Positions 25,370-52,254 of a DNA stretch of 64,000 nucleotides are shown one piece after another. The notes below the pieces were generated by a model, which saw only the letters and a program-made list of their open reading frames with translations, ran no database searches and had not been told where the DNA came from. Positions within the stretch are counted from its first letter, which is position 1. Each line of letters begins with the position of its first letter. The translations under genes were made by a program, and so were the position numbers. The stretch comes from Paraspadella gotoi. Its lineage: Eukaryota; Animalia; Chaetognatha. The stretch is taken from contig JBJCIZ010000239.1 of assembly GCA_051294375.1 (NCBI GenBank), positions 6,487,996 through 6,551,995 of the forward strand. The letters are read 5' to 3'.

Positions 25370-28300
25370 GAGAGATAAAGATAAAAAAAAAAGAAAATTT
25401 ATTGTCAATGCTCCAAAGTATTAAAGTTTACACTGACAATAACAACCATACAGTACAATTAAAAAAAGTAAAATAAATAACATAAACTTACAATGTAATG
25501 TACTACATAGTTTACATTTTCAGTGTATTACACAAAAAAGAGAGGAAAGAGGGGAGCAGAGGGGAAGAGAGAGAGAACAAGCACTCACCCGCTCACCTGG
25601 AATCTGCTGAAGAGGACCAAATGTTCCTTGCAGGTCAAATTTGTCGGAAGATGATGTCGTGTTTGGGGACAAATGGCCTGTCATCTGGAAGAGGAGAGAC
25701 GGACGTTGAACGATTCGTGAAAGTGAGTCCCGTCTTTCGTCCTCTTATCGATACTTGAAAAAAGGCTTTTTCTCTGACCCCTTGTCTGTAAGCTTCTGCC
25801 TTTTGTGTCCTTCAATCCTAATCAATCAATCAATCAAGCAATCATACCAAACAATCAATCACGATATCAAGTTATATCTCTCAATGCGTCAGCAACCAAT
25901 CATTTCATTCAATAAATCACTAAGTCGATCAATCACTCAAGTCAATTCAATCACTTATTATAATCACTCAGTCAATAAACCATTAACTCAATTCAATAAC
26001 TGCTCAGTCGATCAATCACTAACTCAATCAATCAATGCACTTACTCAATCAATCACTCAGTCAATGATTCACTTTTCTCCTTCATAAACCTCAAGTTTTT
26101 TTCTTTATTTCTTTAATCTCCCTTCATTACTCTTCCCCCGCTTCATCGCTCCCCCGCATCCCCACGCACCCCACTAGGGGTGTGTCAAAATTCTAAAAGT
26201 TGTTCTGACCTAAATTTACAATCTAACACAAGGGGCAGGGTCAAAATTAAATAGGTTTGCACGAATCGCCATTCAAATTGGTTTCTAACACCCTTACGTC
26301 ACCCTTGCTTAAAGACAGTTCTAGCACCACCTTCACATCATAAGTCACTGTGTCTAAAGTATGAGAGATTTTACGTCTTACCTTTAATTTATTAGTTTAA
26401 AAAAATGTGCCCAAAGGGTTAACTATATAAAATTTCAAGTCTCTACTCCATCTCGTGGCTCCCACAACAGCATCCACAACCTGCTGAGAGAATGTACAAG
26501 CCCCATTGCATGATGACATTATCTATGAAGTTGTGGGCAGGTAACCTAAATATTTCCAATAAATTTTATTCACAACTAGCGCTACTCTTTGTAATTGAGC
26601 CATCATTTTTTTATAAAATAGTGTAGTCACATCCTGGAAGGATAAATCCTGTACAGATTCTTTTAAAAAATAAATTATGCCCACAAAATATTTATCAATA
26701 ATTTTTGTTTATGGCATCAATCAATAAAGGTAGATGGCGGTTAGCAAGTGGTATTGTTAAATTCATTTGATTTGACCATGTACTTTTCAAGATAGCCCGT
26801 TTTAAAGGCATTCTTCAAAAAAAAATTTTAAACACTGCACTCAGATGGCTAAAAAACCTCCTTCAGCAGATCCCACAACGCCCTCCTCGAGAAGGGGTCC
26901 AAGCCGGCCGTGGGTTCGTCGAAGAGCACCATCTTCGGATTCCCCGTCAACGCGATGGCGACCGAGAGCTTCCGCTTCTGTCCTCCGCTCAACTTTCTAG
27001 TCACCGTGTCTTTCTTCTCCCAAAGGAGAACTTGTTTCAGACGCTTTTCGACTTCGTTCTTGATGTTGCGGATGCCCTGCGTGGAGAGGGAGGGAGGGNN
27101 NNNNNNNNNNNNNNNNNNNNNNNATGTTAAAATTTCAAAAACAGTTTTTTCTAAGATTTTTTTGCCATATTTGGATTCGTCATAAAGTTGATATAAAGAA
27201 ATATAACGTCTTTTTGAAAATTCCCTTCATTAAGTGCGGTCCCAAAAATTTTAGAAAAGATATTTTAGCTGAAAATTAACCCACGTTTCTTTATTATAAT
27301 TCAAATATAGTTTTTTAAATTTAACCCACTTAATGAAATAATTTTTTAAAAAATGATTTTAATATTTCTATTATTCAACTTTTGACGACGGAATTCCCAA
27401 AATCTTGCCCAATCCCAAAATGTTTTTGTGTATAATATATGGTACATTGTCTATGGTCAATTATATCATTAATCGCACTTTAACATTTATACAATAATAT
27501 TTATAAATTTAAATTTTTTTTTATTTTTTATCTGCCAGTGATGATTCTTTTCGAAAACCACATCATGTATATTTTTAAAAATTTTTATTTACTTTTTGTT
27601 TTATCTATCTTGTTTTTTCATCAATTCTTTTTTTTTTTTATATAACAAATTTTTTTATTTTTATATTTCTTTTCTCGCGCCCACCCTATCCCGCTTTTGC
27701 TGCGTGTGATACACATCTACTCCGATACGCCTTTCTCTCGCTGCTCCATCATTTCCTAGCCTTGTGTTTAGAAAATACTTACTTAGGTGGATGTGACTCT
27801 GTATTCAAATTTTATATCTTAATTTACTTGTTTAAATTCTTTATTTTAAAACAATTTTAATATAATTTCTTTAAATATTTTTCTTTTAATTGAATTTGGT
27901 TTATCTTTTAAAAATTGTAATTTAAAAAAAATATATTTTTATAATTTTAAATTTTTTTTTGTTTAAATAAATCTTGTGTGATTCTCTTTTTCTTGTTGTT
28001 TCAAAAAAAAAATATTTTTTAAAATTATTATCTTTAATTTATTTTTAAAAAATTGATTTTTGTTTGTTTAAAATTTTGTTAATTAATCATCTTTATTTCA
28101 ATGTATTTTTCGTCTTATTCCTTTATTATTATCAAATCATTTAATTTTTAATTAATAATTTTTTTTAAAAATATAAAATTTATAAATTTACTTAAAATCT
28201 GTTTTTTAATGTTTTTCAAATTTAAAATAGTTACTTTGTGTCTAATTAATTTACCTGATATGTTTCTTCAATGAATTTCAATTTTGTGTAAAGATAAAAT

Positions 28301-31300
28301 ATTTTTATTTTTTATTTTAAAATTTATTTGTTTATTGTTTTTGTTGTTTGTTTTTATTTTTTAATATCTTTTAATTCTTTATGTTTATTTTTGTTAAATT
28401 ATTTTTTATTTTAATTATTGTTTCTTCATTATATTTTTATTATAAAATTTTTTTTTTTATTTTTATTTTTTTTAATTTAAATTACTATTTACAAATTTGT
28501 TATAATTTTTTTCTTTAAAATTTATTTAAAAGTATATTTGTTCTAATTTATTTTTTTTCACAAATATAAATTATTTTTATGAAATTCTTTTTATTTTTAT
28601 TAAAATTTTATCAATTTTATTATTTTTGTTGTTGTATTATTAATTTTTATTTGTTTTTTATTCTATTATTTTTTTTTAATAATTTTTCTTATTCTTGTAA
28701 AAATGATTTATTTTAATTTTTTTAAAAATTTTTCTTTTTTTTATTATTTTTTATTATAAAAATTGTAATAATTTTTATTTCAAAAAAATAATTTGTATTC
28801 TTTTTTTTATAAAAAATTTATAAATTTAATAAATTTTTTCTTCATTTTATTTCATCCATTATATTTTACATTTAATTTTTTTTAATTATTGTTCTTTAAA
28901 AAAACCAATAATTTTTATTTATTATTTTTATTATTAATTTTTTTTTTTTTATTCTATTTCTTTTATTTTTTTTAAAATTAATTAAATTTTGTTTTTAATT
29001 TTTTATTATTTTATTTTTGTTAATAAATTTATTTTCTTAAAATGTTTAAAATTTTTTTTTAATTTTTTTATATTTTTTTTTTTTAAATTTTTTCAAAATT
29101 CTTATTTTTTTATAATTATTTTTTTTTTTTTTTTAATAATTTAATCTTTATTATTAGATCAAATTTTTTTTTTTTATTTTATTTTTTTTTTTTTTATTTT
29201 TTTTAAATTTATAAATTTTTTTAAATATTTTTTAATTTTTCTTTTTTTAATCTATTATTTTGTACGTTTTTAAATGTTATTTTTGGTAATATCTTAAAAA
29301 ATTTTTTTTTGGTTATTAATTTTACCCATATTAATATTTAATTTTTTATCTAATAAATTTCTTCCAAAAATTTTTTTTTTTATGATTCTTTGTTTAATTT
29401 CGTTTCTAATTTTTATTTATTATTTTTTATCTGTGTACTATGTACTTAAATTCTAATAATCTTCTTTTATTTTTTCTTTTTTTTTGTTAACATATCCATA
29501 AAATTAAATTTTTTTTAATTTTTTTTCTCTTTTTTTTTTATTAATGCTCTGCATTTTCTTTTTATATTGTTTGTCTCTCAAATTTTTGTAATTTTTTTTT
29601 TCCCCTTTTTTCTTTTTAAACATCTTATCTCTTTTTATTCTTTTATTCTAAATTTTATTCTTTTTTTTTTTTTAAATCTTTATGTTTTTCTTATAGAAAA
29701 GCTTTTGAAATTTTTCGATTTTATAAGGATAGTACTATATTATAATATAGCCTACTGCGAAAATTAAAAAACATAAAATTAATTTTTTTTTTACAAATTA
29801 AATGTTCACTATGGTATGTTGTTCATAATTGACTTTTAGAATTTTTCGTACTGTAACTTCACTACGCCTTAATATACATATTAATGGGTTTTTGATGTTA
29901 TTGATAGGTGATTTAATTATTTTTAAGACAAACTGTGAATTAAACAGAGAGACAGGAAGAGCCATTTCAGTGAACACGATGCGAGAACATTACAAAAAAA
30001 TTAAAGGCTGTACAAAGTCTGCATAATACTAGTTATGCTATTATTAATAGCACGCAAAATTTCTAAAAATATTAAATTCATTAGCCTCAATGTTAACCTT
30101 CACAGCCTTTCTCTCTCATCCACTATGGAAGCGTATGACGGATAGAGCGATGAGATTACTTAACGTAATTTGATGACAGCTGCACGGCCAAAGTCCCAAA
30201 CCGAGGTGATAATAAAAGGTGACGGTCGGTGATTGTACTTACTCACCGGCCGCGCGAACGGCGTCGAACTTCCTTACCTGCCGAGAAAAAGTGGGAGAAA
30301 TTGAATGAATTATGGTGGACTAAATCTCGCCAAACCGTTTCATCAGCGGCCATGGTGCCCGCAAGGCAAGTCATTCGCCTCCAACACCAAAGGATACGGC
30401 GGTTCAAGCCGCGTGTGGTCGTATCGGAGGTTAAGAGGGACGGGACGCTTAACCCGCCTGTATCATGGTGTATACAGCCCTGCATCCGAACGCGCAGGGA
30501 CTGCTGATATTCTGTCACTAAACAACATAACAATAGTTACTGTTCTCAGAATTATTAAATAGCTCAATTAACTCAACTTTTTTGTATGAGCTTAAAATAG
30601 TTGTTTCAATTCCGTAATAAGCTTTTTTCTCTCAATCTCATTTATTATTTGCTTTAGGCTAAAACTCTAGCTAGTTTTTTTTGTGCATTGTTGAGAAGAA
30701 TTCTGTTTAGAAGTACAAGATTTAGGGTAACATTAGGGTTAGTGATTAGATTAAATTAGAAAAATAAATTAGGATTTATATTCTGGATTTGATAAAACTT
30801 TACGAATAGATCGGTAAAAATATTAAGCGTTTAAAATCAAATTCCAAATTAAATCTAAAGAACCGAAAATAGGCTAGTCTGTTGCATAAAGTCAGCGTTG
30901 GTAACGCTCCCTTCAAATTCATCATTGCAACGAATTTTCTGCTTCAAACCTCAACCCACTGGAAACATCTTAAACGTCTTGAACGCTTTCCGAATCCTCC
31001 GTTCGTGAATACTTTTTCTCCCGTAGTTGTGTAAGTCTTTTTCTCACTCATTCGCTTGTAAGTGTTGTAAAGGCCATGTAATATTGTTTAAATTCTTTCA
31101 AAGTAGAGGATCTGGAAAAAAAGAGCGTGGTTTTTTTTTTTTTTGTTGGTTTGTTATAAAGCACTGTTGTCGGTAGTACGTTTTACCCTTCAACTCGGCT
31201 GACCAGATCAACAACAGCTATGGCGCCGGAGGTAACATGCACTCCTCCCAACTCAACCAGGTTAGGGTTCACAACCTGCTAAGGGGGCGTCTAAACCCAC

Positions 31301-34300
31301 CTGTAAGTGACGGCTAACAGCTCGCGGCATTGTCCTCCAGTGGTTAGCCCAATTACAATCATGCTGCATACGCTACACCTTCTGCCCGGGCCTGTTAAAA
31401 CAACTCTGCCCCTCAACCAATGCTGGAAAGACGGAGCCAGGGGACAGAAGCCGTCGAAAGGCACTCAGCAGCATCAACCAACAGCATTCAGACTATCACA
31501 CTTTAGGGCCGGCGGCGATGCCGAGGAGGATTTGTTCTGTGGTAGTACAAATAATACCACACAAGTTCATCCAAGAATGAGCAGCACTTATGCTGTCAGA
31601 CGGTACAACCGCCAAAGACTTGGGTTCGTTCCCTGCCTGATTCAATACAAGTGGAGGCGTGATGGGGTGTCTAACCCACTTTGTAGTGACAGACTACAGC
31701 ACAGTTAAAGTATTGGACCTTGTGTGCAATGAACGATGGTCCTGGCATCGTTTTTTTACAACCACCTATTTTAACCTCAAATTTTGTCTAAGTTTAAACA
31801 CATAGGCTCAGGGTATTAGAGTTAAGGACTACTTAATATAGATTAGTTAGGGATTAGGCGTTAGGGGATTTTGTTTGCTAGTTATCTAGATAAAGAATTA
31901 GATTTCTAGAATTAGGATTAAAGTTAAGCATTTCGGTTTAGGGAATAGTCAGGAAAAGATTAAGGTCTAACTTAAAAATAATAACTAGACTGAGGGAAAG
32001 GACCAGATATAAGGCTTTTGTGGAAGAAAAGTTTTTGGGACTTTTTGAAACTGTTCGATAATTGAATCATCTCGAGTAAGACAGGTGTCATGCTTATAGC
32101 GGGGGTGAACTTATGCACCGACTACACCCTTCTCACTTAAAACTCCTTCACCAATTTCTAACCCACCCAAAAATGAAAACCCCTTACCGTCATCGAAGAT
32201 GTTTCTGGTAGCGAAAAAACGAATGTTTGTAGAGCGGCGACTGGTGAGGCACTCGCTAAGCGGCGACCGCCGCGGCGGAGACGGTAGGCGAGGCGCGTGG
32301 CGAGTGCGTGGCGTGGAGGGAGTGTTTGAAGGGGGTGGCGACGACGTCGACGACGATGTTGGCTTCTCTGGTCCCCTTCTTTGCGAATTCTTCGGTCGTT
32401 TCTTGGTTCGTTTCTTCGGCAGCCGGCTTCCTTTTGGCATTACCGATCATTCCCAGGAGTCGCTCGCAAGTGTCGGCATTCGCTCGTGGTCCAGAGGAAA
32501 GGATAAAAGAGTCATGACTTTGTCCGGGAGGATAGGGGTAGACGCTGCGGTTTCTTCACGTGCATCTGGTTGATGGCACCAAGGTAAGCAGCGACCTTTC
32601 GCGTTGAGTTCCAGTGTTTAGGGAGAAGACGAACGATTTTTGTTTTCGAAGCGTTTGGCGCTGTGGATATTGAAGCGTTTAGGATAGAGTTAGATCGAAT
32701 AGAGGAAGATAGAAGATAATCGGGTGGTAAGATGGTCACAAGCTTAGTCGCAGATAGTCTTTACAGTTACATGAAGGCTAGTGCATAGTACAACAAAAGA
32801 TTCCCTGGTCTAAAATTGGAGGGGGTTGTCTTATAAAACATTCATTGAATTATTCTCCATCCCATTATAAGAGGCCAGATGCACTGGAACTTCCTTAACT
32901 AGACTGATGGGAGAGTCTGATTGAAAGCTTCGAATCTCGCTATGAAATAAAGTACCACCTTATAAAAATTATACTTATATTGGAATAAACAATTATCTTG
33001 CCCCTGACATTATGTCTTGGATAGTCTAGGGTCGGTTTTTTTGGCCTTCATCGCTCATACAAGATTTTACGAAGATCCTTGAACGTTTTCAATTAGACGC
33101 AATCATAGTTTAGTTTACTTACTCCCTTTGTCTCGGCTTCCCTATCAATATTAATTCAATGGGATGATTGTAAATATCTTGTAAAAATGGATTGCAGGCG
33201 GGCTTCTTCCTCTCTCTCCTCCTCTCTCCCAACTCCTCCTCCTTTTTCCCTCCCCCCTTTCCTGCAGAGTAAAAAGGAAGGACTTTGTCTTTCAATCTCT
33301 TTCGTTGACGTAGAGTGCGAGATTGTCCCCGTACACCTGTCGGGTTTGGTTTGGAGAACAAAGTGACCCCAGCCTGCACAGGAAGTTTGATGAGAGTACA
33401 TGACCCCGCCTGATGTAGCCGAGGAAGAACGGGGCTTTGAATGAACATCATGCAGGCATTGGGAAGGTAGAGGCCAGGGAAGAGGAAGATCATCAACGGC
33501 GCCGACAGCTTTCTGCTTAACCTACGGACGGGAATGTGCGAATTACGGAAGGGGGGCAGGAGGGTGAGGGGCCGGTGGGTAGTGTGTGAGGAAGTAGGGG
33601 TGTGGGAAGGGGAAACTTTGGACTCTAAGCAAGTCTCTTACCCACATTTTTACGCCCCATACAATACTGATGTATATTGACAAAAAAGCAATTTGAACTT
33701 TTACAATGTATCATAAAAAATACCTCGAGACTATGTGATTTCTTGAAACAGGCAGTCGTCATAACGTCTCTGCTCTATAAATATTTTTTTTTCTTGAGGC
33801 ATGCTTAGTACCATGGTTTTGAATTTGATATTAAACATGGTCGTTTGAGCTCTGAAAAGTCAGCTTAGGTCCAGGTTGTTGCTGACTATTTCCCATTTAG
33901 CAACTTGGCCTATCCTCGTCTGACGTGGAGAGAGAAAAAGAAAAAAATGGAGGAAAATAACTAAAAAATTTAAAATTTGTATATTTGTCCAAATTTCTTT
34001 TTTTTAAACATCAATTTTTCTGCATCGCATTCTGGCTATATCCATCTAAAACAGACGACAAGAACAACAACGACAATCACTCTCTCTCTGTCTCTCTTCT
34101 GTCTCTCTCTTCTCTTTCTTTCTCTTTCTCTTTCTTTCTTTCTTTCTCTTTGTACTATATATTCATTGCTATGCTAATTGTATTTATTTTATGAAATTCA
34201 TATTTTTAATTTCGGTGTCACTGATTAAAAGAATAGATAAAATATATATAATAGTAATATTATCATATAAATAATTAATTATTATATTAGTTAAAATTTC

Positions 34301-37300: not shown

Positions 37301-39859
37301 TTTTTTTCAAATTTCTTTAGAAAAACTTAGAGAGAAAAAAATTAAATACGTAAAAAAAGTGAGTTGGAACAATAAAACCCGATTTACAACGCCAACTTTC
37401 TCCATCTCATTGTCAAGGCATAAATCTTAAAGCAGATCAAATATATAAAATTGAAACATAAAATTATTTTTATATGTTTTATTTAACTAATTTTTAAAAA
37501 TCATTGAAATAACACTAGTTGCAAATGTCAGCGCTTTTTTACCGGCGCTTGTTAAAATTGTCACATGTTGAAATCAGATTTTACCGTTTTTTAAAGCTCA
37601 GGTTAGAAATTAAGGTCAGAAGATTTAGCTAGGGTTTAGGTTTAGAATTTGGTTCGCTCGATACAGATTAGGGTAAAAGAAATATGTTATGGGCGTTTTA
37701 AAATAAAGGAGAATTAAACTATTATGTTAAATAAAAATTCAGAGATTAAGGAACAGAAATAGAGCACTTTTTACGAACAAAAAAGCTTTTAAAGTCTGAA
37801 ACTTTAATCAAATCCATTAGGAACAGAAATGAGGCCGGTTTTCAGAAAATAGTTTCTCATACTTATTTCTTTCAGAAAATTGAGGAGCCCAGATGCACTG
37901 GAGGTATCTCGTTGATGAGGATGCGCCTTTCTGTCGGCCAGCGATGTCGGCTTTCGTCCATCGAAGTGTGTCTTGTCAAGATGATTACCTTTTTTTCGTT
38001 TTTTGGGGGTTTTTTATAAATAATAATTGATGAATAAATAAATAAATGGATTTAATACAATAAAAAGATTGATAAATACAATGATTAAGAAAACGCTCGA
38101 GGTAAGTCTAAAGAGAAGAAAGAAAAAGAGCAAAGAGTTGAAAGAAAATTACAGACAAAGAGAGAGAGATAGGAACAGAGAGTAGCGTGTGCATAAAGAT
38201 GAAAATAGAGGGAGGGAGAGAGAGAGCGATGAAGGAGAGATGAGAGAGAGGATGAGAGAGAGAGAGAGAGAGAGAGAAGAGAGAGAAAGAGAGAAGATCC
38301 GCCAGAACCGCCTTCAACCTTCCCCTGCTTTCCTCCTTCAGACGATCCCACGAAGACGCCGCTCCTCGAGAAAGGGTCCAACCGGCCGTGGGTTCGTCGA
38401 AGCAGCACCATCTTTCGGATCCCCGTCAACCGCGATGGCGACCGAAAGTCTTACCGCTTCTGTCCTCCGCCTCAACTTTCTCGTCCACCGTGTCTTTCTT
38501 CTCCCAAGGAGAATTGTTCAGACGACTTTTCGCGTCTTTGAGCGGACTTGTTCTTATTGTTTGCCGGATGCCCTGTCGTGGAGACGGGAGGGAGGGAGCG
38601 AAGCTTTGGCGGGAGAGGGGAGCGAGAAGAGACCTTTTTGACTCGCAGAGTAGCAGAGAGAGAGGAGAGATAGATGAGAGATCGAGAGGAGAGAGAGAGA
38701 GAAGAGAGAAGAGAGAGAGCAGAGAGAGAAGAGAGAGAGAGAAAGCAGAGAGAAGAGAGAAAATAAACAAAGAATTGATTTTTCGAATGCTCCAAAGTTA
38801 TTAAAGTTTACACGAAAACAAATGATACCATACAATTAAAAAAAGTAAAATAAATTAACAGAAACTCACAATGTAATGTACTACATAGTTTACATTTTCA
38901 GTGTTTACACAAAAAAGAGAGAAAGAGGGGGAGAGAGGGAGAGAGAGAGACACAAGCCTCACCCGCTCACCTGGAATCTGCTGAAGAGGACCAAATGTTC
39001 CTTGCAGGTCAAATTGTCGAAGATGATGTCGTGTTGGGGACAAATGCCTGTCATCTGAAGAGGAGAAGGACGTGAACGGTGAACCCGTCTTTCGTCTCTT
39101 ATCGATATGAAAAAAAGGCTTTTTCTCTGACCCCTTGTCTGTAAGCTTCTCCTTTTGTGTCCTTCAATCTATCAATCAATCAATCAAGCAATCTACCAAA
39201 CAATCAATCAATCAGATAATCAAGCTTTCAATCACTCAATTACTCAATCGGTCAGTCAACCAATCATTCATTCAATAAATCACTAAGTCGATCAATCACT
39301 CAGTCAATCAATCACTTACTTAATCAATCACTCAGTCAATAAACCATTAACTCAATCAATAACTCAGTCGATCAATCACTAACTCAATCAATCAATCACT
39401 TACTCAATCAATCACTCAGTCAATGATTCACTTTTCTCCTTCATAACCTCAAGTTTTTTTCTTTCTTTCTTTAATCTCCCTTCATTCTCTCCCCCCTTCA
39501 TCCCCCCGATCCCCACGACCCACCCCTCGTATCGCCGTCATCCCGAACGGGTCCGTGATGTCGTTCCCGTACAGCCGGGCCGTACCGCCCGTGGGCCGGA
39601 CGAGTCCGATCAACATGTTGATGGTGGTCGTCTTCCCGGCGCCGTTGGGCCCGAGGATGCACGTGATCTGAGTGGGGGCGCTTAGAGCGGTCTGCATGGG
39701 TAGAGAACCGACTGCCGGAGACGGGGAGTGCGTGGGCGGCGTGAGCTTTGGCGGAGATGGGCGTATCTGAGATGTGGGTAACAGGACGAGGGCGAAATTT
39801 GGTTTGTGGCAGGCGGGGGGCACCTCTCTCCTCTACTCTCTGCGTGCTCGTCTCTCTCT

Positions 39860-39905
<46 letters not shown>

Positions 39906-42900
39906 TTGACACATTTTTGTCTGTGTAAATCAAATTCAATTTTAACGCTGATGAAGGCTCGCGAATAGAGCCGAAACATGTACGTTTTTTAAATGAAAAT
40001 AAAATCGTTGTTGTAAACAATTCAAACGCTTTTTCTAAATGATAAAAAACTATAATAAAAAACCCTAACCATAACTATCCAAAACCCTAAACCATCCCTA
40101 ACCCTAAACAGTAAACACCCTGTAACCCGAGTTGGAGAATTTAAAATTAAGACTCTTTTTTTAATCCCTCAACTTGAATTTTTAAAACTAATATTTAATC
40201 CTAATCTGTTATTAAACATGAAACATGATCCAACCTGGACCATTTATTCAATATTCATTAATTCTCCTTGACCACTCGTCATACATCAGACCGCGTGGCC
40301 AAATGGAGAAGGCGTCTGACTACGAATCAGGAGATTGAGGGTTCGAGTCCCTCCGCGGTTAACATTCAAAACTATTTAAACTATGCGAAATATTTTGTTT
40401 AATTTCTTCAGGCCAATCATATTATCTTTTATCCAAGCTTTTGCGTCCGAGCTCTTTGAGACTTGTTTACTCCTTTTGCTTTACCTTCAAAGCGATCTTC
40501 CCATCCAAGCTTGGGCGTCCAAGCTTTCTCTCTGGCTCAATTTTAAAACGATCTTCCCATTCAAGCTCTTGGCATCCAAGCTTTCTCTCTGCCTCACTTT
40601 TAAAGAGATCTTCGTGTCCAAGCTCTTGGCGTTAAAGCTCTCTCTCCAACTTATCTTCAAAGCAATCTTCCAATCCAAGCTCTTGGCATCCAAGCTTTCT
40701 CTCTGCCTCACTTTTAAAGCAATCTTCACATCCAAGCTCTTGGCGTCCAAGCTCTCTCTCCGCCTCACCTTTAATGCAATCTTCCCATCCAAGCTCTTGG
40801 CATCCAAGATTTTTCTCTGCCTTACCTTTTAAGCGATTATTCAATCCAAGCTTTCTCTCTGCCTCACCTTCAATGCGATCATACCATCTTGCATTGCGAT
40901 GCGATCTTCCCATCCAAGCTTTCTCTCTGCCTCACCTTCAAAGCAATCTTCCCATCCAAACTTTCTCTCTGCCTCACCTTCAAAGCGATCTTCCCATCCA
41001 AACTTTCTCTCTACCTCACCTTCAAAGCTATCTTCCCATCCAAACTTTCTCTCTGCCTCACCTTCAAAGTGATCTTCCCATTCAAGCTTTCTCTCTGCCT
41101 CACCTTCAAAGCAATCTTCCCATCCAAGCTTTCTCTCAGCCTCACCTTCAAAGTGATCTTCCCATCCAAACCAGTATATAAGGTGATAGACAGACGCGGG
41201 TCTATTACCCCCTCCTTCTCATTCACCTCCTCTTCATCCTCCTCCCAGGGATTCGGGGCCGCGTTCACGAGATTCAGTTCACCTTCCTCTATTCTCCTAC
41301 TAGTTTCTCCCCTTTTTTTACTCTCATGATTGTCGCCGTATAGATTTTCCTGCCGTCGTGACTTTACTTCCGGTTAGGATACCTTTTCAGAGCAAACTTT
41401 CTCTCTGCCTCACTTTCAAAGCGATCTTCCCATCCAAACTTTCTCTCTGCCTCACCTACAAAGCGATCTTCCCATCCAAGCTTTCTCTCTGCCTCATCTT
41501 CAAAGCGATCTTCCCATCGAAACTTTCTCTCTGCCTCACCTTCAAAGGGATCTTCCCATCCAAGCTTTCTCTCTGCCTCTCCTTCAAAGCGATCTTCCCA
41601 TCCAAGCTTTCTCTCTGCCTCACCTTCAAAGCGATCTTCCCATCCAAGCTCTTGGGGACGGGTTCAACTACTTCCGACACTAGGTCCGCGTTGGTCGCGT
41701 CGTCAGCTTCGATGTTCGGCAACTCTCTCCTTCTGTTTTGACAGCAGGACCAGTAGTGGGGAGTGCAAAAGAAACAAGGGTTTCTCTGAAGGAGGGGGGG
41801 AAGGAAGGGGGCGGGAGGTGGGTTGTGTAGTAAGGCGTAGTGAAAGTTACATACGAAAATTCTAAAAGTCATTTATGAACAACATACCCTCAGTGAACAT
41901 TAATTTGTAAAAAAAATTAATTTTATGTTTTTTAATTTTCGCAGTAGGCTATATTTATATATAGTACTATCCTTATAAAATCAAAAAATTCAAAATAGGC
42001 TTTTCTTAATTTTGATTGCAGATTTGAATTCCTCGTCAAAAGTTGATAAAGAAAATATAAATCATTTTTAAAAATTCTTTCATTAAGTGGGTTAAAAATT
42101 AAAAAAACTATATTTAATATATAAAAAGTTAATTTTCAGCTTAAAATATAGCTTTTTCTAATTTTTGACTCACTTAATGAAGGAATTTTTCAAAAAGTTA
42201 TATTTCTTTTTACCAACTTTTTATGACGAATCAAATCTGCAAAAAAATCTTAGAAAAAACTGTTTGAAATTTTAACATTTATGGTTTAGTACTAGTATAA
42301 ATATGGCCTACTGCGTAAATTGTAAAATTATTAGAATTTTTTTATTACAAATGTTTATTAGTATAGATTGGTTCGTTCCTCACTTTTAGAATTTAATTAA
42401 AGTTAAATTTAGAAATTTTACTACGCCTTATTGTGTAGTCAGGCATAGCAAAGTTCACCCCGCCTCTAAGCATGACACCTTCAGTCAAGATCCGGTGGCT
42501 CATTGAGTAAAGCCATCAGCTCATAACCACTAGGTACCGGGTTCAATCCCAACCCGGTACTTCCCTGCGGAAGTGTGAGGACGGCCGTAAGCGCCTTGGG
42601 GGCGTGGAAAACCCTCAAGCCTGGTTCCAAGCCCAGGACCCGTTCCATAGCTGCTAGAGGGGGTTAAAGAAGTTGCGGATAGTCATCTTCAGCCCACTTA
42701 GCGCCTTATCCATACTGGTGAGCCCATCCTGTTGAGCATATTCCAACCTTTTGATTCCAGGCCCATGGACGTGCTGAAGATTGCTCCCCTCCCTCCACTG
42801 GAAGCAGTGCAGGTGGGTTACAATCTGGGGGCATGTAGTCGGGCATAGCAAAGTTCACCCCGCCTCTCAAGCATGACACCTTAGGTTCGTGACCGTTTGG

Positions 42901-44776
42901 CTTTGAAATAAAGCAAAGTCAAGCTCATTGAACCTACTAGGTATACGAGTTCAATCTCTAACCAGTAACGCCGTAAGACGTTGGGCGTGGAACTCAACTG
43001 GTTAACCAGGACTTCATACTCTCGAGGGGTTAAGTAAGTCATCTTAGCTAGCGCTATTCAAGGTAGTTGTCTTTTATATACTATAATTATATGCTAGTAA
43101 AGATTTACAATTTACTTCAGTGTACAGAAGAATATTTTTAGACGATCTAGTAGAAGAGATTAGATGAGAGAGACCTTGTACCTAAACCATCTGGAAGAAG
43201 TTCTAATGAAATTGTTTATACAGTGTGTCCTATACTACTATATGGCTGTGAGGTAAAAACTTTTTTGGGCTAGAGACATGAACAGAATTAATGTTGCTAT
43301 TAATGATGGTATCATGAAAATTATTCGGATTCAAACCGATGGAAAGCATTAGAGAGCTTCGGACTTTAGTTTGGTTACTGTGATATTATTACATGTTTAA
43401 CCAGCGTAAAAAGAACTTTATTTCCAAGATCTATAGTTCGAAAATTTAGTTTCAAAAAAATAATCGCATTCTTTAATGATTGAAATATATTAATTGATAA
43501 TTTGGACCTTTGTTGTCTGTGGTGGTGGTTTTCACGCAATCTTTAACTTTGTTTGTTTTTAGACTTAGCTTTTTTGATGCTCCTGTATGTAACTGAATCA
43601 ACCTTGTTGAATCGAAATAAAACGCATTCTAAGCATGACACCTTCAGTCGTGACCGTGGCTCATTGAGTAAAGCCATCAGCTCATGACCACTAGGTACCG
43701 GGTTCAATCCCAACCAAGTGTGAGGACGGCCGTAAGCCGCCTTGGGGGGTGGAAAACCCTCAAGCCTGGTCCAAGCCCAGGATCCGTTCCATAGCTGCTC
43801 GAGGGGTTAAGAAGTTACGGATAGTCATCTTCAGCCCACTAAGCGCCTTATCCACAGTTGTAGCTTTAATGTTCGTTTATTATACATATAAAATTTTTTA
43901 TTGCTAGTATTATTAAGATTATTTTATACAATATTTTAACTTTCAATTGATTGGATTGACGAGAGAGAGAGAAGAAGAAGAGAGAGAAGAGAGAGAGACA
44001 CCTGCAGCCGGTTCCCGTAGACGGTGGGAAAGAAGTGCTCGAGATAAACTGCGATAGCAAGAAGGCGATGAATTCGACAGAGAGAATATAAGACCGAGCC
44101 TGAGAAGAAATTTAATGTAATAAATATATAATAAAATACTTAATTATATTTCAAATATCTAAATTAATAATTACTTGAAAAAAAATGTGTTGATGAACAT
44201 TTTACAAATTTAAAAATAGAAAGAAAGAATAAGATTAATCTATGAAACTTCGATCCAAAATTAAATTAATTTCAAAGTTAAAGATTAGGTTAAAGATTAA
44301 AGTTAGGGATTAGGTTGTGGATTGGCTTAAGAATTAAGATTGGGATTAAGTTTGTAATAGGGTTTAGGGATTAGAGTGAAGGATCAAAGTTAACATCAGG
44401 GATTGAATAAAAATTTGTTAAGAGGTTAGATCTTAGGGTTAAAATAAAGTAAAACAGAAATGAGCGCGGTCTCGGTAAATAGTGCCGAAACGTGGGGTCC
44501 CTAACTGCGCCGTGAATGTCCAGTAGAGGGAAGTGCCGTCGTCTCGTTCGTCGGAAGCTCAACTTCTTCGTTGATGAGATCCCATCTGAGAGAAGGAAGA
44601 AGGAGAGGGTTGGTGGGGAGTGGGAGGGAGTGGGGAGTGGGGGAAGGGGAGAGATGGTGGGAGGAGGAGGAGGGGAGGGGAAAGGGAAGATGGGGAAGGG
44701 AAAGAATTTTAGGGAAAGGAGAGAGGAAAGGAGGAAGATGAGGAAGAGAAGAGAGAGGAAAGGAGAGAGGGTTGAT

Positions 44777-45143: not shown

Positions 45144-48100
45144 ACGTGACGCTTCGCTCGACGGCGGCGAGCCAGACGCAATGAGTGAGAGCGAGACAGA
45201 TGGCGACTTGCGGTACGATGGCGAAGATGCAGGCAACGGCGAAAGGAATCAGCATCATGACGAACATGAGGATGGGTGTGGCCAGAGCAAAGAAGAAGGC
45301 GCTGATGATGCTGAAGACTGCGTTCGCGTTTTTTTGTGTGTGCGTATGTGTGTGTATTCGTGTTTATTTGTGTGGAGGTGGAGTAAGTTAAGAGGGATGG
45401 AGAGAAAGCGGGAGGAAAGGGACGGGCATTGCCTAAGTTCAACCCGTTTCTGAGCATGACACTTTCAGTCGTGACCCGGCGGCTCATTGAGTAAAGCCAT
45501 CAGCTCATGACCACTAGTTACCGGGTTCAATCCCAAACCGGGAAGCGTGAGAACGGCCGTAAGCCGCCTTGGGGGCGTGGAATTCCCAGCCCAGGACCCG
45601 TTCCATTGCTTCTAGAGGGTTTAAGGAAGTTGCGGTTAGTCTGCGGGTAGACTACCAGTCATCCTCGGCCCACTTAGCGCCTTATTCACATTAAGTTCAG
45701 GGGTCGTTCCAATGGTGGCGTAGGGTTGAAATCCTTACCCCATACAATTAAATCAAATCAAATCAACTAATCCAATCGATCAATCAAAATCGCATTAATA
45801 CCTGCGGCGCTTTTCACGCTCTTGAAGAGAACCGAAACGACGAAGGATTGAGAAATGACGGTGAGAGAGTAAATCCAGAAAAGAATGAAGAAGACGCTCC
45901 TGCAGAGCGAATAAATTTTAAAAATATATATTATATACAAATGTATTAAAATATCTGTTCAATTCTTATCTATCTATTCTAAGCTAAATCTAAATTTATT
46001 ATTCTTAATATTAATAGAAACAGTTGCTCTCCCCCTGACCATTCAATGTTGCCCACGATCCAATCCGATCCGACGACCATGATGAGCATTAGGCAACTTA
46101 GGATGAGCGCCTCGAAAGCATTGACGACGAGGTAGGACAACCAGAAGGCAGACTCCAACATGCCCATCACCCGCATCATGTCTTTGATCTGTAGGTTTGA
46201 AAAACATGGGAAGGCGTGGTTGAGGGTTGGTAGTTGGCAGGGAGGGATGGATCTGAAGAAAACTTAATTTCTGATATTATTGTAGTCGGGCATTGCCTAG
46301 GTTCACCCCGCCTATAAGCATGACTCTTTCAGTTGTGACCCGGTGGCTCATTGAGTAAAGCCATCAGCTCATGACCACTAGGTACCGGGTTCAATCCCAA
46401 CCCGGTACCTACCTTGCGGGAAGAGTGAGGACGGCCGTAAGCCGCCTTGGGGGCGTGGCAAACCCTCAAGCCTGGTTCCAAGCCCAGGACCCGTTCCATG
46501 TCTGCTAGAGGGGGTTATAGAAGTTACGGATAGTCATCTTCAACCCACTTATTATTATTATTACGCTCAAAAATTTTGTAAAGAGAGCGAATTTTGTCAT
46601 TTACACATACAGAGGCAGCAAATAAATATTGTAACATATCCCAATCCTTTCATCACCCCTCCCTAAAAATAAATTCGTTCGAAGAAAAAAAAAAAAACTA
46701 AAAAAAATAAATCTTCAAGGTTTTTGCGTGTGTAAAAATGTTGCGCAGTATGCATAGTACGCAATGCATACGAACCTAACCTTGCTCTCTTTCTCGCTGA
46801 CCAACTGAACGACGAGAGAGACGTAAAATGGAATGAGACCCAAAGCCGCGGCCACGCCCAACAGATGATATTGGCCGGCGGCGCCGACTGCCGGCCGGCC
46901 ATCCGGCGTGTAGGTTAGACGAGGGACGGGGAACATCTTGACGCTGTAGTTGAGACGGAGGCCGCTGATGACGGGCGGGTCGGAGCCTGGCGGGAGAGGG
47001 GGGAGGGAGAAGAAGGGAGGGAGAAGAAGGGAGGGAGAATAGGGGAGGGAGATGGTGGGAGGAAGGGAGGTGGTGGAGTGGGAATGTAAAGAACCCAAAG
47101 TTTTGATAAAACGTGATTTACATCTTTTTAAAAATGTTTAACCTTTTTTTTTTTGTAAGGTGGAAAAGACGTAAAGGGGATTTGTTTATATGTTTATATT
47201 TGATTATATATACATTCTATCCCGTGTTTAACAGCAACGTTTGTTAGAAATGATTTTAATTCAAACAAATTCTCTTCGTGAATATCTGAATTGTTTTTAG
47301 TCTCTACTTTAATGATTTTATATCTTTACTCTCATTGGTCGAATTCTACCAATAGTAGTTAATGATTGAATTCTCAATAATTTTAAAGAAGATCTCTCTT
47401 CTCATTGGTCCATTAAATTTAGTCTTTGTATAAAAGAAAGGGCAACTTTTATTTTTTGAAGAGATTGCCCTGGGACCATAAGGTAATTGAATGATTTACT
47501 GAAATTATTAAATAGTGGAATTAGTATTAATAAATGGTTATATTTTGTAGCTTTTGAGCTTCCACAGCTCTTCCAATGGCTCTTCCACAGCTCTTCCAAT
47601 GGCTCTTCCACAGCTCTTTCAATGGCTCTACTGATTGTTATTTCGATTGTCCTTATAACTGTCAACTGAATTACAACTAACTTCAATTAATACTACTAAT
47701 GGCGTTACGGTTATTGATGAGTCAACAATAGAGAAATTAATATGAAGGATGCTCAATCGTGTTCCCAAGTCCGTAAGGAAATGTGCAATCTCTAACACCG
47801 TTAATGTTATCAGAGTAAATGTATTATGTTTTCCCTTCTCATTTTTCTTAACATTTTTAGTCGTTTATGATTAATCCCTTCTTTACAATATTAGGAACGC
47901 TTCACAATCTTAATTCACATTTCCGTCCTGGTCCAGTATCCTCCTTAAAACGACCACCCCCAACCACCCCCTCCCCAACCACCCACAACGTCCACCCTTA
48001 ACCCACTTACCCCGGGTGAGTTCCTCCAAAATGGCGGATTCGACGACCATCTGCAGCTGCGCATATCCGCTGAGGAGATAATCGTTCGGCGGGCAGTTTG

Positions 48101-51100
48101 AGGAGAGACCCTGGTTATTGATAGTGGTTATTGATAGTGGTTAATGATTGGTGGATGGAATTGTGGATGGATCAGAGAATGGTTTTGTGGATGGATCATA
48201 GAATGGTTTTGTGGATGGATCAGAGAATGGTTTTGTGGATGGATCAGAGAATGGTTTTGTGGATGGATCAGTGGTTAGATTAAAGAAACAAAATTCATTG
48301 CTCTTTAACTCTTAAACTGGAAATTCAAAATCGGTATCTAAAATTTTTTTTTTTTCACTTTTTTTACCATCTTATTGAAAGAATTTTTTAAAGAAAGAAT
48401 TATACTTTCTTATAAACTTTCTTATGAAATTGGTACAACCAATATAAAAATTATCCATTCATTTAATAAATAAGCTATCTTGCCCCTGACTTTGGACAGG
48501 CTTTGGTGGTTTAAGGCCTCCATCACTCTTACAAGATAATGACATAGCAGGTCCCTGCAAGCTTTCAATCAAGACTCTCTCACAGACTTGTTTATTCACT
48601 CCCAGAGTACCTGGCTTCCCTATCAATGAAGTGGAAAATATTTCAAAGAATGTTTCAATTGTATGAAAAGACCACTCCCTTAAGTATTAGATCGGGGAAT
48701 ACTTATTGTACTCCGCACTAGCATCAAAATACAAGGAGCTGAATTTTATGAAATTGGTACAACCAATATAAAAATTATATCATTCCCCCCAAATTTTTTT
48801 CCCGCTCCCTACCTTCAAAAGCGGTTGGTAGCAATAACGCGTCTCCAAATAAGAAGATGCGATCGCTTGAAAATCCGCGCGTGGACCCTTTTTGGGGACC
48901 TGGAAGAGGGTGGACGGGGATCGGGAAGAGGGTTTGAGGAAGATGAGGCGAGGAAGGGGGTGTTGATCGCCTGATCGAATCCCACCCCCCAAAAAAAAGA
49001 CTGGTCACGTGACTTTATAAAAGTATGAAATAAATGCAGAGTGAAATGGAAAATCCTGATGGATCGTCTACTTTTTCCCGGGAAAACTTAACCAAACCGC
49101 GGCATTGAGTATGTCATGTCATGTCGCAATAACTCATTGGGCGTGTGAACGCGTTATCTCGTACTGAACGAGCGACAAAAAGGGAAATTTAATTTCCTGT
49201 AAACTATTTTTTTTTTTCATAATATTTTGTATTTATTTGCTTAACGCTTTTCTTTTTTCTGAATTTTTTCGAATTTACCTGCAGAACCAAACCCGGGCCG
49301 GGCATTCGGATAGCGTATTTGGGTGTCCGGATCTTCATAGGATCTGGAAGATATAAACAAAAATTGCGATTCTAAATTGAATCGAATGTCAGGGACGAAT
49401 TTCCACGCCATCTCGTTCGTTTAATAAAGGAATTTTTGGTTGAGGCTGAATCACGAAGCTGACATTTTGACTCTATTTAGTATTTACCCTGTCGCCATTT
49501 ATCACCACAAATATACGGACTTTTGCAGGTTGAATAATACATAAAACACTTCGGTCAGCTCCTCCCACGCAACTTTGTGTAATTTTGTGCAAGAGTTTCA
49601 CAATAATACGAAACTGTACATTTACTTTCTGACTTTCATCTTTATTCCAGCGACGCTCTATTTAGCTTTTTTTTAAAATGTATTATGTACTAGAAGTGCA
49701 TTCATATGTTTTAAAGAAAGTAAAACATTTGTCATGTAAACTATTCTCACTATACTAGCAAAGTAGATTTATAAAAATTAGAAAATAGAAAATTTCCTTC
49801 CAAGATTTTCGTTAAGAATAGTTTCGGGTTCCTAGCGTAGTGACATTCTCTTTACAATGCGTATCACTATGCATATTACTATGAATAATATGCTTTTCTT
49901 AGTGACTGTTTTGATGTCGAGAAAATTGTTTCTTCAACTTCATACTCACGAGTCAATCGCAGTTGGAGTCCGAACCAAGAATGGAATCTACACATTTAAA
50001 TGAGGGCACGATCTATAAAAAGGAGCGCCAGCGGATTCTTTAAAGCGCGAATCGTTGGCGCCGCCAATTCTTTCCCTTTACTGAATTTTCCGGCGCCGCA
50101 ACCGTCACTGACGGCGTCAGAGCCCAAAAAACTCACATGGAACGTAATCCGTGTCTTCGCCTTCGAAAACGATGGCGCCGGCAATGTTGAACTTGTAGAT
50201 TCGTCGGTAGATCTCGACCAGCTTCTCGTTATTGGCCAGGATTTGACTCTCTGCCCTCTGAGGATTAATTGATCGATTTTTTGCTAAATTGATTCATAGA
50301 GTCGTTCAGATGTTTAATTAATTGTTAATATTGCTTGTTGTTTTTTTTTTTCAGGCAGGTAACGCCCGTTTTGGGTTGTGTTTGTCAACTTGTCAGAAGT
50401 GAAAAAAAAACTGCAATGATATCGATTAATTATTATATCAAACATTAAATCAATTAATAAATCTATCAATCAAACAAACAATCAATCAATCATTCATATT
50501 CCCTGATGAATTCCAAGATCTTTGAAAATTCTTCTTGTCATCCTTTTCACTCTCGTCGAAGATATTCCATTTTGGACGACAAAAAACTGTCGCGAGTCTC
50601 TGATGATAAATATGCAATACACAATATAAAATATTATTATATTATTTTGTTATTATATAGTATTTTTTAAGGCGACAGACGGATAGACGGATAGTTTCTA
50701 TTTGAGTACAATAAATAAAGAATTACAACTTTATTGCTGAGTCAGTATCGATGCTTCATCCGAGAAAGCCCCCCCCCTCGCGGCCCCCACCCCCCCCAAA
50801 AAAAAATAATAAAGATTCACTTTTGAGTGGTGAACTGGAAAGGCTGCTCGTTGTTGAGCGTGAACTTTTTGGGTTTGGCGTTGAAGAGTGGATAAACGGG
50901 AAAGTCGACTGCGTTCATCGCTTGATCAACTCCGTCCTTCTTGAAGATCTGTCCCAGAATGATGAAGAGCAGCACGAAGAGCAGTTCCGAGAAGGTGCGG
51001 AGAAAGCTGCGCACTTTGAGCAGAAAGTTGCGGCTCATCAACGCCCAGAATTGCGGCAGGAATCCGCCGCAACAGAAGATTTTCCTCGCCGTTTTCTTTT

Positions 51101-51134: not shown

Positions 51135-51470
51135 GATGATTTTTTTTTTCCCTTTTTTAAGTTACTTTATTTTTTGTAATCTAGTTTTTGTTTGTTTGTT
51201 TACAATTCGCTTTTATCTTTTAGTTTCTTTTTGATTCATACTTTCAACGATTTGTTTTTGTTTTTGTTTTTATATTTTCGTTAAGAATTTTTAAAAATCT
51301 TTTGATGTCGAAAAAAAAAATATTTGTTTAAACGTGGATTTTTCGCCCGCTGTCTTTGAGGGTAAAAAAAATTTAAGGTTGTGTCATTAATGGGCTCCTA
51401 AAGTAATATAAATATTACTCTAAACATTTGAATTTTTACTCCGCGCCTCCTCATGTGAAAAATAGTCGTG

Positions 51471-51725
51471 TGTGGCGATATATTCACACCGCCTCACATC
51501 CACCATCATTCAGCCAAATCCATTGGCTCAGAGGGGGAACACACCATCCCAGGCGTAGAGTTCCATCCACAGTCCTAATGACTTCCCTCTGCGTTGGCAA
51601 AGCGAGACCGTCCTAGGGTAACCGCGCCAGTGACTGGAGGCGTCACTGAGGGTCGGAAGCCCCCAAAGCCAACAGTGAGATGCCCCATCCCAATGGGCAT
51701 CACAGGCAACCCGGCTGTTGCCATA
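51471..51725 (+). mobile_element. Family-2 solo LTR with tRNA-like boxes and twister fold
   Basis: Termini TGTGGCGA...TTGCCATA, perfect 4-bp TSD CGTG, A box TGGCTCAGAGGG, B-like GAGTTCCATCC. Homologous copy at 1880. Confidence 0.85.
51593..51673 (+). ncRNA. Twister ribozyme, type P5 (family-2 LTR)
   Basis: P5 GTTGGC/GCCAAC; GCGA-GA-CCG-TCCTAGGG-TAA-CCGC-GC; P3 CAGTGAC/GTCACTG; P4 GGG/CCC with loop T-CGG-AA-GC. T1 is CCG/CGG. Confidence 0.82.
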
Positions 51726-52254
51726 CGTGCGAGCTTTTTCTTTATGGTTTTATTTACGGAGCCGATGTTCTGAGACAAGCATGACCTGTTCTGAGACAAG
51801 CATGTTCTGAGACAAGCATGACCTCGCTTTACGATAGTTCATTCCTTTATTAGCAAGCAAGATGTTTTTGGCTTTATCACTCGGTGAAACTTTAGATGTA
51901 TGTCACTATTGTCACTACTAATTATATGCGTAATAAATAAAAAAAAGTTTAATAGATACCACGTAAATTTTTTTGATATTTAACTATTTTTACGTATCCT
52001 TTACTTTTTCCACTCTTGCGCCTCCATTTTTATGGCTCAAGTCAAGGATTACGATGTGAAGAATTGAATTCGATTAAACTAATTGTTAGATTTTATTGAA
52101 TAGAATGGACACAAAAATTAAAACACTAATTTCAAAATTGAATTAATATTAAGTTCAGTATAATTCATCGGCGCTACCAAATACTCGGATACTTAATACG
52201 AATTAAAAAAGAAAAGAAAATTCATTGGACGGAATTTTAGGTCAATTGACCTTT

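Follow-up and report, generated by a model that had tools for sequence, protein, structure and literature searches.

Helenus elements are miniature terminal-repeat retrotransposons (TRIMs; proposed TRIMp3), which are short and non-coding and whose long terminal repeats (LTRs) run from TG to CA and contain a decayed tRNA-like module with boxes A and B (Kojima 2024, PMC10886601). According to the same account, the 5′ LTR is followed immediately by a primer site, a G-rich run immediately precedes the 3′ LTR, animal copies have 4-bp target-site duplications (TSDs), internal parts are fewer than solo LTRs, and some copies form tandem arrays. Plant LTR retrozymes, as reported by Cervera, Urbina and de la Pena (2016, PMC4918200), are non-coding too, have a primer site, a purine tract, a 4-bp TSD and many solo LTRs, and carry a self-cleaving ribozyme in each LTR, the proposed RNA intermediate being the part between the cuts. 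Here we describe an element at positions 41826-43856 of a 64,000-nt stretch of DNA from the chaetognath Paraspadella gotoi (assembly GCA_051294375.1, contig JBJCIZ010000239.1, positions 6,487,996 to 6,551,995 of the forward strand), hereafter the window, which has the same general build and whose LTRs contain a fold of the twister class.

Twisters, in the tables and text of PMC8501958 on which we drew, cut after the U of a UAA; a GC (T1) pairs with the GC of a loop, and the NNN of that loop pairs with the bases after a GA (T2). P3 is optional, the loop of P4 reads U-NNN-AA-GC, and an A-rich strand precedes P2′. The sole twister function shown in the literature consulted is the processing of one family of long interspersed nuclear elements (LINEs) in a flatworm (PMC8501958).

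Anatomy of the element

All coordinates are those of the whole window; family A is the family of the 41826-43856 element, and the other families are called B, C, D, E and F. The element is a decayed, non-coding mini-element of the LTR type, and the observation behind the original prediction, which a model had made from the letters of this DNA alone, proved real. Its parts, and the insertion within it, are as follows.

41822-41825, no strand: left TSD, GTTG, identical to 43857-43860, found by reading
41826-41831, plus strand: TGTAGT, the initial 6 bases of LTR1, split off by a later miniature inverted-repeat transposable element (MITE) and recurring at 42434-42439
41832-42430, no strand: AT-rich MITE of 599 bp with inverted ends (TAAGGCGTAGT...), found by repeat scan and foreign to the retroelement
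42434-42714, plus strand: LTR1, 281 bp, TG..(C/T)A, from reading, repeat scan and copy comparison
42496-42550, plus strand: decayed tRNA-like module, in which TGGCTCATTGAGT at 42496 resembles box A and GGTTCAATCCC at 42540 resembles box B
42568-42642, plus strand: twister-like core of LTR1, predicted cut U42588/A42589, one C of P2 missing
42715-42833, plus strand: internal part, 119 bp, non-coding, with a primer-site-like motif and a G-run
42834-43056, plus strand: middle LTR, degenerate, its first 34 nt 97% identical to LTR1, 69% overall, twister loop lost
43057-43627, no strand: AT-rich filler, 571 bp, with no second copy within the window
43628-43856, plus strand: LTR3, minus its first 32 nt, 95.6% identical to LTR1 (228 aligned bases), ending in CCACA
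43716-43782, plus strand: twister core of LTR3, predicted cut 43733/43734, P5 strand and one loop base missing
43857-43860, no strand: right TSD, GTTG, found by reading

The LTR anatomy claimed for the element was supported; we find a 281-bp LTR1 with TG..(C/T)A ends, a primer-site-like motif, a purine tract, a GTTG/GTTG duplication and a 400-bp spacing. The TGG-type primer-site-like motif TGGTGAGCCCATCC lies at 42716-42729, one base past LTR1, shows no listed variant among other copies and is partly common to family C, and the purine tract, a G-run followed by CA (GGGGG-CA, 42827-42833), is present just before the second repeat, which starts at 42834, exactly 400 bp after 42434, and matches at 97% over 34 nt in the repeat scan. 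The end of LTR1 reads CCATA here, as against CCACA in nearly all other genomic copies (42713 T>C in the run contigs described below). LTR1 and LTR3 are 95.6% identical, whereas identity to other copies in the window is only 91.4% and 93.5%. Together with the GTTG pair, a match with a chance of 1 in 256 in a single case, the outer repeats look like the two ends of a single old insertion.

The start of LTR1, TGTAGTC, occurs at both 41826 and 42434, the six bases TGTAGT being present twice because the MITE, on inserting later, generated a duplication of 8-9 bp, TTGTGTAG(T), that includes them. A second copy of the MITE, at 5016-5627, is 95% identical, and parts of it recur at 16281-16459, 29691-29868, 13714-13986 and 27124-27396, indicating that 41832-42430 was inserted later. 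With ~600 bp and a duplication of 8-9 bp, this MITE is possibly hAT-like, one of its copies lying within the edge of LTR1.

Transitions account for 35 of the 70 differences between the middle repeat and LTR1, that is, without bias, on which grounds hypermutation was rejected as the origin of this aberrant repeat; it is also no insertion splitting the 3′ LTR, being homologous to LTR1 over its whole length. Both LTR-internal-LTR arrangements in the window have unlike repeats (69% and 54%), yet the first 34 and 14 nt, respectively, are nearly identical. Among other family A copies, a repeat of the normal type follows the internal part (loose end at 42846; go-back joint from 42850 to 42453).

A twister-class fold in the LTRs

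Seven copies were parsed base by base with a script against the module table of published P3-bearing twisters (PMC8501958 Table 1), which gave the order P5/AA/P2′/GA/T2′/linker/UAA/P2/GC/P3/P4 (loop U-NNN-AA-GC)/P5. This order is the one originally predicted, although the element then labelled T1′ is actually T2′. It corresponds to a permutation that is open at P5, includes a P3 hairpin and has hardly any P1, and all twister modules are present. Two A's, P2′, GA, a 3-base T2′, a linker of 6-8 nt, UAA, P2 and a 2-base T1 were found in 7 of 7 parsed copies, all of which also have a P4 closed by an 8-nt loop, U-NNN-AA-GY; P3 is missing in one family, and the P5 helix joining both ends is formed in four of the seven. 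The UAA stands at the expected place, directly 5′ of P2, in every parsed copy, and the script placed the first predicted cut at 42588/42589, the very site given before. Junction lengths and order are the same as in PMC8501958 Table 1, in which one loop, GUUCCAAGC, is identical to that of family A. P2 is merely 2-3 bp long with a bulge, and the linker that replaces P1 allows no hairpin longer than 2 bp, or else pairing of one copy with another.

Further LTRs and cores of the same kind lie elsewhere in the window.

46281-46551, plus strand: family A solo LTR, 3′-truncated, 91% identical to LTR1; its twister core (46417-46493, predicted cut 46438/46439) is the most complete of all
45425-45687, plus strand: family A LTR, 5′-truncated, twister P3/P4 deleted, ending in CACA
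51471-51735, plus strand: family C LTR of 254 bp (51471-51724, TG..CA) plus an 11-nt primer-site remnant, with sharp ends in run contigs; twister core 51593-51673 with a 6-bp P5, predicted cut 51619/51620
6056-6262, plus strand: LTR of family B with uncertain ends; the twister core spans 6173-6236, with the cut predicted at 6192/6193
6908-7480, plus strand: families D and E as LTR-internal-LTR with a 364-bp period, the two LTRs merely 54% identical
6908-7092, plus strand: family D LTR, twister core decayed
7272-7480, plus strand: family E LTR, damaged twister core 7367-7441
48479-48535, minus strand: twister-like core of family F, P3 absent, cut predicted at 48513/48512, loop sequence UCCAAAGU

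Three other families had been proposed to share the layout, and the cores at 51471 and 6056 do look intact, whereas that at 6906 is decayed and the core of its partner at 7272 is damaged. Broken twister cores in the window were found at 42834, 45425, 1880, 6908, 8713 and 19614. The family B LTR is duplicated with its flanks at 16893-17106 and 30302-30521, and the window copy search revealed further duplicate copies at 17757 and 31165. A block of several kilobases with families B, D, E and F occurs in three copies (~5000-9300, 16200-20100 and 29600-33600) of 88-92% identity; these differ by many single-base indels and could be a segmental triplication or the outcome of noisy long-read assembly. 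The family F unit is flanked by 40-nt direct repeats (95%) at 48422-48460 and 48746-48785, too long for a target duplication.

A strict descriptor containing all modules, written post hoc after the sequences had been seen, gave three matches in the window (46438, 51619 and, on the minus strand, 48513) against one match in total in 1000 first-order Markov shuffles; it replaced an earlier loose descriptor, for which 0.39 matches were expected per shuffled window. With family A as its only input, a covariance model retrieved family B (E 0.0032) and family F (E 0.2) from the 64-kb window, and a second-round model gained family E (E 0.0039).

The linker in place of P1 is palindromic in three of the five families, reading CGGCCG in A (46432-46437), AGGCCU in F (48514-48519, minus strand) and CCUAGG within UCCUAGGG in C (51612-51617), or 8 nt with flanking bases. 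No useful hairpin is possible within a six-base palindrome, and the predicted self-duplexes of the linkers amount to -16.3 (A), -13.9 (F) and -11.2 (C) versus -3.1 (B) kcal/mol. P1 may form between two ribozyme copies via these palindromic linkers.

Covariation and constraint

T2 pairs as GGA:UCC for family A, CGG:CCG for B, CCG:CGG for C and UGG:CCA for F, Watson-Crick throughout, and family E forms two of the three pairs; T1 is GC:GC in A, B and C or AC:GU in F and E, and P5 is CGGG/CCCG, GUUGGC/GCCAAC, CUUG/CAAG or ACAA/UUGU. Both pseudoknots are preserved by compensatory changes in four divergent families. For a formal count, six copies from four families were aligned with MAFFT, family C being misaligned, hence excluded, and parsed by script instead. 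Of 118 cells, 93.2% were paired, compared with 77.0 ± 2.5% in shuffles (0 of 500 reached the observed value), and 10 of 21 pairs changed on both sides, a number reached in 5 of 500 shuffles and including two of the three T2 pairs. When the partners were slid by 1-3 columns, only 19.7-51.3% of cells remained paired.

The variable sites among other genomic copies were also compared with the fold. Within the family A core they comprise 42574 (U to C) and 42591 (G to A), both of which retain the P2 pair, with the remaining listed sites (42604, 42608 and 42611) all located within the P3 loop, and an extra C after 42591 in other copies restores the third P2 pair. The 65 nt downstream of this core have 13 listed variable sites. 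The 81-nt core of family C has only two, 51635 and 51639, both in the P3 loop; given that its 54-nt tail contains zero listed sites, the family is simply young.

The tRNA-like module and the place of the terminator

The motif check found a box A of the form TRGCY in families A and C and a box B, GGTTC, in families A, B, D and E, and the region 42492-42560 contains a single variable site among the other copies in the run contigs. The polymerase III (pol III)-type promoter that had been proposed therefore stands as far as its box motifs go, but its origin from a tRNA came out weaker, given the default ARAGORN and Rfam results described below. At 60% thresholds, ARAGORN drew weak cloverleaves at the expected place in the repeats at 42434, 46281, 6056 and 7272, among many spurious calls.

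A run of four T's (T4) is absent from the LTRs at 46281, 51471 and 6063, and the lone TTTT in the internal part of the present copy reads TTCT in nearly all other copies. Among 20 complete animal Helenus LTR consensus sequences in the supplement of PMC10886601, 14 have, as judged by eye, a run of T4-T6 soon after the tRNA-like part. The twister occupies the position in the LTR at which most of these published animal LTRs have their T-run.

Abundance and boundaries in public runs

Contigs of four coded public runs were aligned to two stretches, 42300-43100 and 51400-51800. The former gave 5035, 6164, 2429 and 506 records in the four runs, almost all on the repeat, with 42894-43100 covered by none of them. 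Contigs of other copies diverge into unlike, AT-rich sequence after 42712-42714 (23-98 loose ends per run; agreement 0.41-0.49). Contigs bridging from the LTR into the internal part (X2 record 15, X9 record 30) and from the internal part into the next LTR (X2 record 16, X5 record 24) were recovered, and the summed depth of the internal part is ~10-20x lower than that of the repeat, a rough figure that fits many solo repeats. Family C is bounded sharply at 51471 (TG) and 51724-51726 (CA) across thousands of contigs; its copies are mostly solo amid AT-rich flanks, with a minority continuing into GTGAGCCC..., the motif of the family A primer site. Families A and C are thus present on thousands of contigs, mainly as solo repeats. 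The sharp ends at the LTR boundaries and the solo repeats are those of an LTR element, unlike a short interspersed nuclear element (SINE), which starts at its tRNA head and ends in a tail. Run X9, a presumed but uncertain RNA run, has a depth profile that parallels the DNA runs, and no pile-ups of contig starts or ends were reported on either stretch, which is uninformative on expression.

Genomic context

Exons of a minus-strand ABC transporter gene flank the element. The five family A repeats that lie between them are all on the plus strand, antisense to the gene.

39485-39832, minus strand: ABCA-like ABC transporter exon (Pfam ABC_tran)
45982-46263, minus strand: probable ABCA-like ABC transporter exon, with no Pfam ABC_tran call

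Among the named hits to one exon, a barnacle ABCA1-like protein ranked best (64% identity over 43% of the query), and no relatives were found for another exon. An intact tRNA-Arg (ACG) gene of 65.2 bits lies at 40289-40361, 1.5 kb left of the element, and is the sole match of the window to Rfam at gathering thresholds. Directly left of the element, a tandem array with a 42-bp period (40480-41690) contains open reading frames on both strands, none with a Pfam match. Short TTAGGG-like and GATTAGG-like runs occur in AT-rich stretches adjoining elements (6455-6520, 7530-7595 and 44274-44323).

Proposed mechanism and alternatives

Taking these observations together, we propose, with a probability of roughly 0.5, that the element is a decayed TRIM of the Helenus type whose LTRs combine a tRNA-like box A/B module with a twister-class fold that cuts its transcripts. 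Transcription by polymerase III would begin in the upstream repeat, at its tRNA-like module, and continue into the rest of the element, there being no T4 in the repeats. The twister, standing in place of a terminator, would then cut in both repeats (U42588/A42589 and the matching site in the next one), releasing a unit-length RNA, of 400 nt in family A, with 5′-OH and cyclic-phosphate ends and no terminal redundancy. Without a terminal repeat, ordinary strand transfer would be unworkable for such an RNA, and because its two ends would rebuild the ribozyme, we propose that ligation into a circle is likely. An autonomous LTR element could lend a reverse transcriptase that, primed at TGGTGAGCCC, would pass the circle junction and so yield LTR-internal-LTR DNA or longer arrays, the route suggested for the retrozymes of plants.

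Several results weigh against this proposal. Transcription, cleavage, ligation and reverse transcription are all inferred, and the Pfam scan found reverse transcriptase, integrase or gag domains in 0 of 79 open frames of the window, so that no autonomous partner is present there. The primer-site motif does not match the 3′ end of tRNA-Arg, the only tRNA of the window. ARAGORN at default settings recognised tRNAs in 0 of 11 repeats, and the Rfam tRNA model had no match up to E=10 in 42400-43900; most Helenus LTRs are likewise not recognisable as tRNA in the account of PMC10886601. The copy at 41826-43856 contains only one near-complete twister core, its middle repeat (69%) is far too diverged to be a product of rolling-circle copying, and with a near-absent P1 and a short, bulged P2 the activity could be low. 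The covariation is based on few sequences, the structure having been drawn from those same sequences, and the second-round covariance model did not retrieve family C up to E 10.

The search with Rfam twister models that had been put forward as a check of the original prediction also went against it, since no match attained the gathering score (37.6 for Twister-P5, 67.2 for twister-P1). Twister-P5 scored 17.3 bits at 42574-42636 (E 1.2 in 1.5 kb) and, for 48485-48527 of the minus strand, 25.8 bits (E 0.32 when the full window was searched and 0.002 for 401 nt), twister-P1 gave a local match of 15.2 bits at 51625-51668, and family B (6056) had no match up to E=10 in 141 nt. The sub-threshold alignments fall on the conserved letters, and the low scores arise because the models penalise the missing P1 hairpin and, in the P5 model, the inserted P3 hairpin.

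In its boldest form, which we hold only tentatively and consider rather doubtful, the proposal would make these elements the first LTR retrozymes of animals and the first based on a twister: pol III TRIMs in which the terminator has been replaced, P1 is formed in trans and the released 400-nt RNA circularises to become a rolling-circle template for a borrowed reverse transcriptase. If P1 did form only between copies, cutting would be tied to transcripts with two repeats.

The main rival, which we regard as unlikely, is a linear RNA that never becomes a circle, the twister only replacing the pol III terminator and making the 3′ end in the downstream repeat while upstream cutting is slow, incomplete or suppressed, so that some RNAs would keep a terminal repeat for the usual strand transfer. 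The location of the twister, in LTRs without T4, at the place taken by a T-run in 14 of 20 animal Helenus LTR consensus sequences would suit such a 3′-end function, as a weak P1 and short P2 would suit a slow ribozyme, and most genomic copies are ordinary solo LTRs or LTR-internal-LTR units, like those of any TRIM. However, the ribozyme is blind to the position of its repeat, and each upstream cut would remove the very repeat needed for strand transfer; moreover, plant elements of the same build form circles (PMC4918200).

It is less probable still that the fold is a relic, active in an ancestor or captured, with the current copies spreading as plain Helenus-type TRIMs. Sub-threshold Rfam scores throughout, the many broken cores in the window and the near loss of P1 are what a relic would show, but in four families, unlike one another at most positions, T1, T2, P4 and P5 have been maintained by changes on both strands, which requires selection on the fold after they split, and the variable sites of two very abundant families avoid paired and conserved positions. 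Finally, a SINE of tRNA origin, or a tandem element like the non-LTR retrozymes of animals, copied by LINE or Penelope-like enzymes, is very improbable even though the 400-bp tandem period and the tRNA-like module resemble animal retrozymes (PMC7229834) and twister variants are known at the 5′ end of Perere-3/RTE LINEs (PMC8501958; PMC7761336), because the unit starts with TG ~60 nt before the tRNA-like part, ends in CA without an A-tail or simple-repeat tail, and has a TGG primer-site motif after the repeat, a G-run before the next, a 4-bp duplication and sharp solo ends at the LTR boundaries.

Comparison with known systems

In the comparison with Helenus suggested alongside the original prediction, the architecture matched that of the Helenus TRIMs published in PMC10886601, and GGGGG-CA at 42827-42833 resembles the G-runs in which the published Helenus internal parts end. 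The elements described here differ from these in their longer repeat (254-281 bp), in the tRNA-like part lying mid-repeat and in a ribozyme fold that replaces the T-run. Twisters have 0 mentions in the main text of PMC10886601, and motif searches of its consensus file gave no LTR twister core. In arthropods, that study lists Helenus only from parasitoid and gall wasps, with six families placed in Chalcidoidea, and the host of the present element probably belongs to none of the lineages it lists. Two LTR consensus sequences from Synergus gall wasps in its supplement, Helenus-2_SyUm-LTR and Helenus-2_SyJa-LTR, contain what by eye is an apparent complete type III hammerhead ~25 nt past box B, at the position that the twister has here (GUC, a 7-bp hairpin, CUGAUGA, a 4-bp helix, GAAA and a 5-bp closing helix); both are without a T-run, and the motif is unmentioned in the text of PMC10886601.

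Plant LTR retrozymes, as described in PMC4918200, have type III hammerheads, LTRs of 300-400 bp, a length of 600-1000 nt and a promoter without a tRNA-like module, whereas the element here has a twister, a presumed tRNA-like box A/B promoter, a 400-nt unit and an animal host; no hammerhead appeared in any Rfam scan of the window. The circles of plant retrozymes have been demonstrated experimentally (PMC4918200), while a circle of the present element is a prediction. Cassandra TRIMs, as summarised in PMC10886601, likewise have an LTR promoter derived from a pol III gene, but this is the 5S rRNA gene, the host is a plant and there is no ribozyme.

The twisters of Perere-3/RTE elements (Liu et al. 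2021, PMC8501958; de la Pena et al. 2020, PMC7761336) are similarly associated with the processing of retrotransposon RNA, but are described as a single type-P1 copy at the 5′ end of a coding LINE, whereas copies in both LTRs would be expected to produce two cuts per transcript. Neither Rfam model, RF02684 (Twister-P5) or RF03160 (twister-P1), encodes the combination of an open P5, a P3 and a linker for P1, and annotators should be aware that these permutation-specific models miss this form entirely at their thresholds. In agreement with the claim that such an arrangement was previously undescribed, no paper in the literature searched places a twister in an LTR or TRIM, the original twister paper and its supplements lying outside that search.

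The design of the element thus appears to be that of a Helenus TRIM or plant LTR retrozyme in which the hammerhead is replaced by a twister. A twister fold at a defined place in a very abundant non-coding LTR element, beside a presumed pol III promoter, gives this ribozyme class a concrete, testable job, and links work on Helenus and TRIMp3 with work on retrozymes. Should cutting and circularisation of the RNA take place, LTR retrozymes would exist in animals as well, and the hammerhead would cease to be a fixed part of retrozymes. Together with the Synergus motif, this would, if true, point to a general LTR design of a tRNA promoter plus a ribozyme with at least two origins, and to a second role for twisters in eukaryotes.

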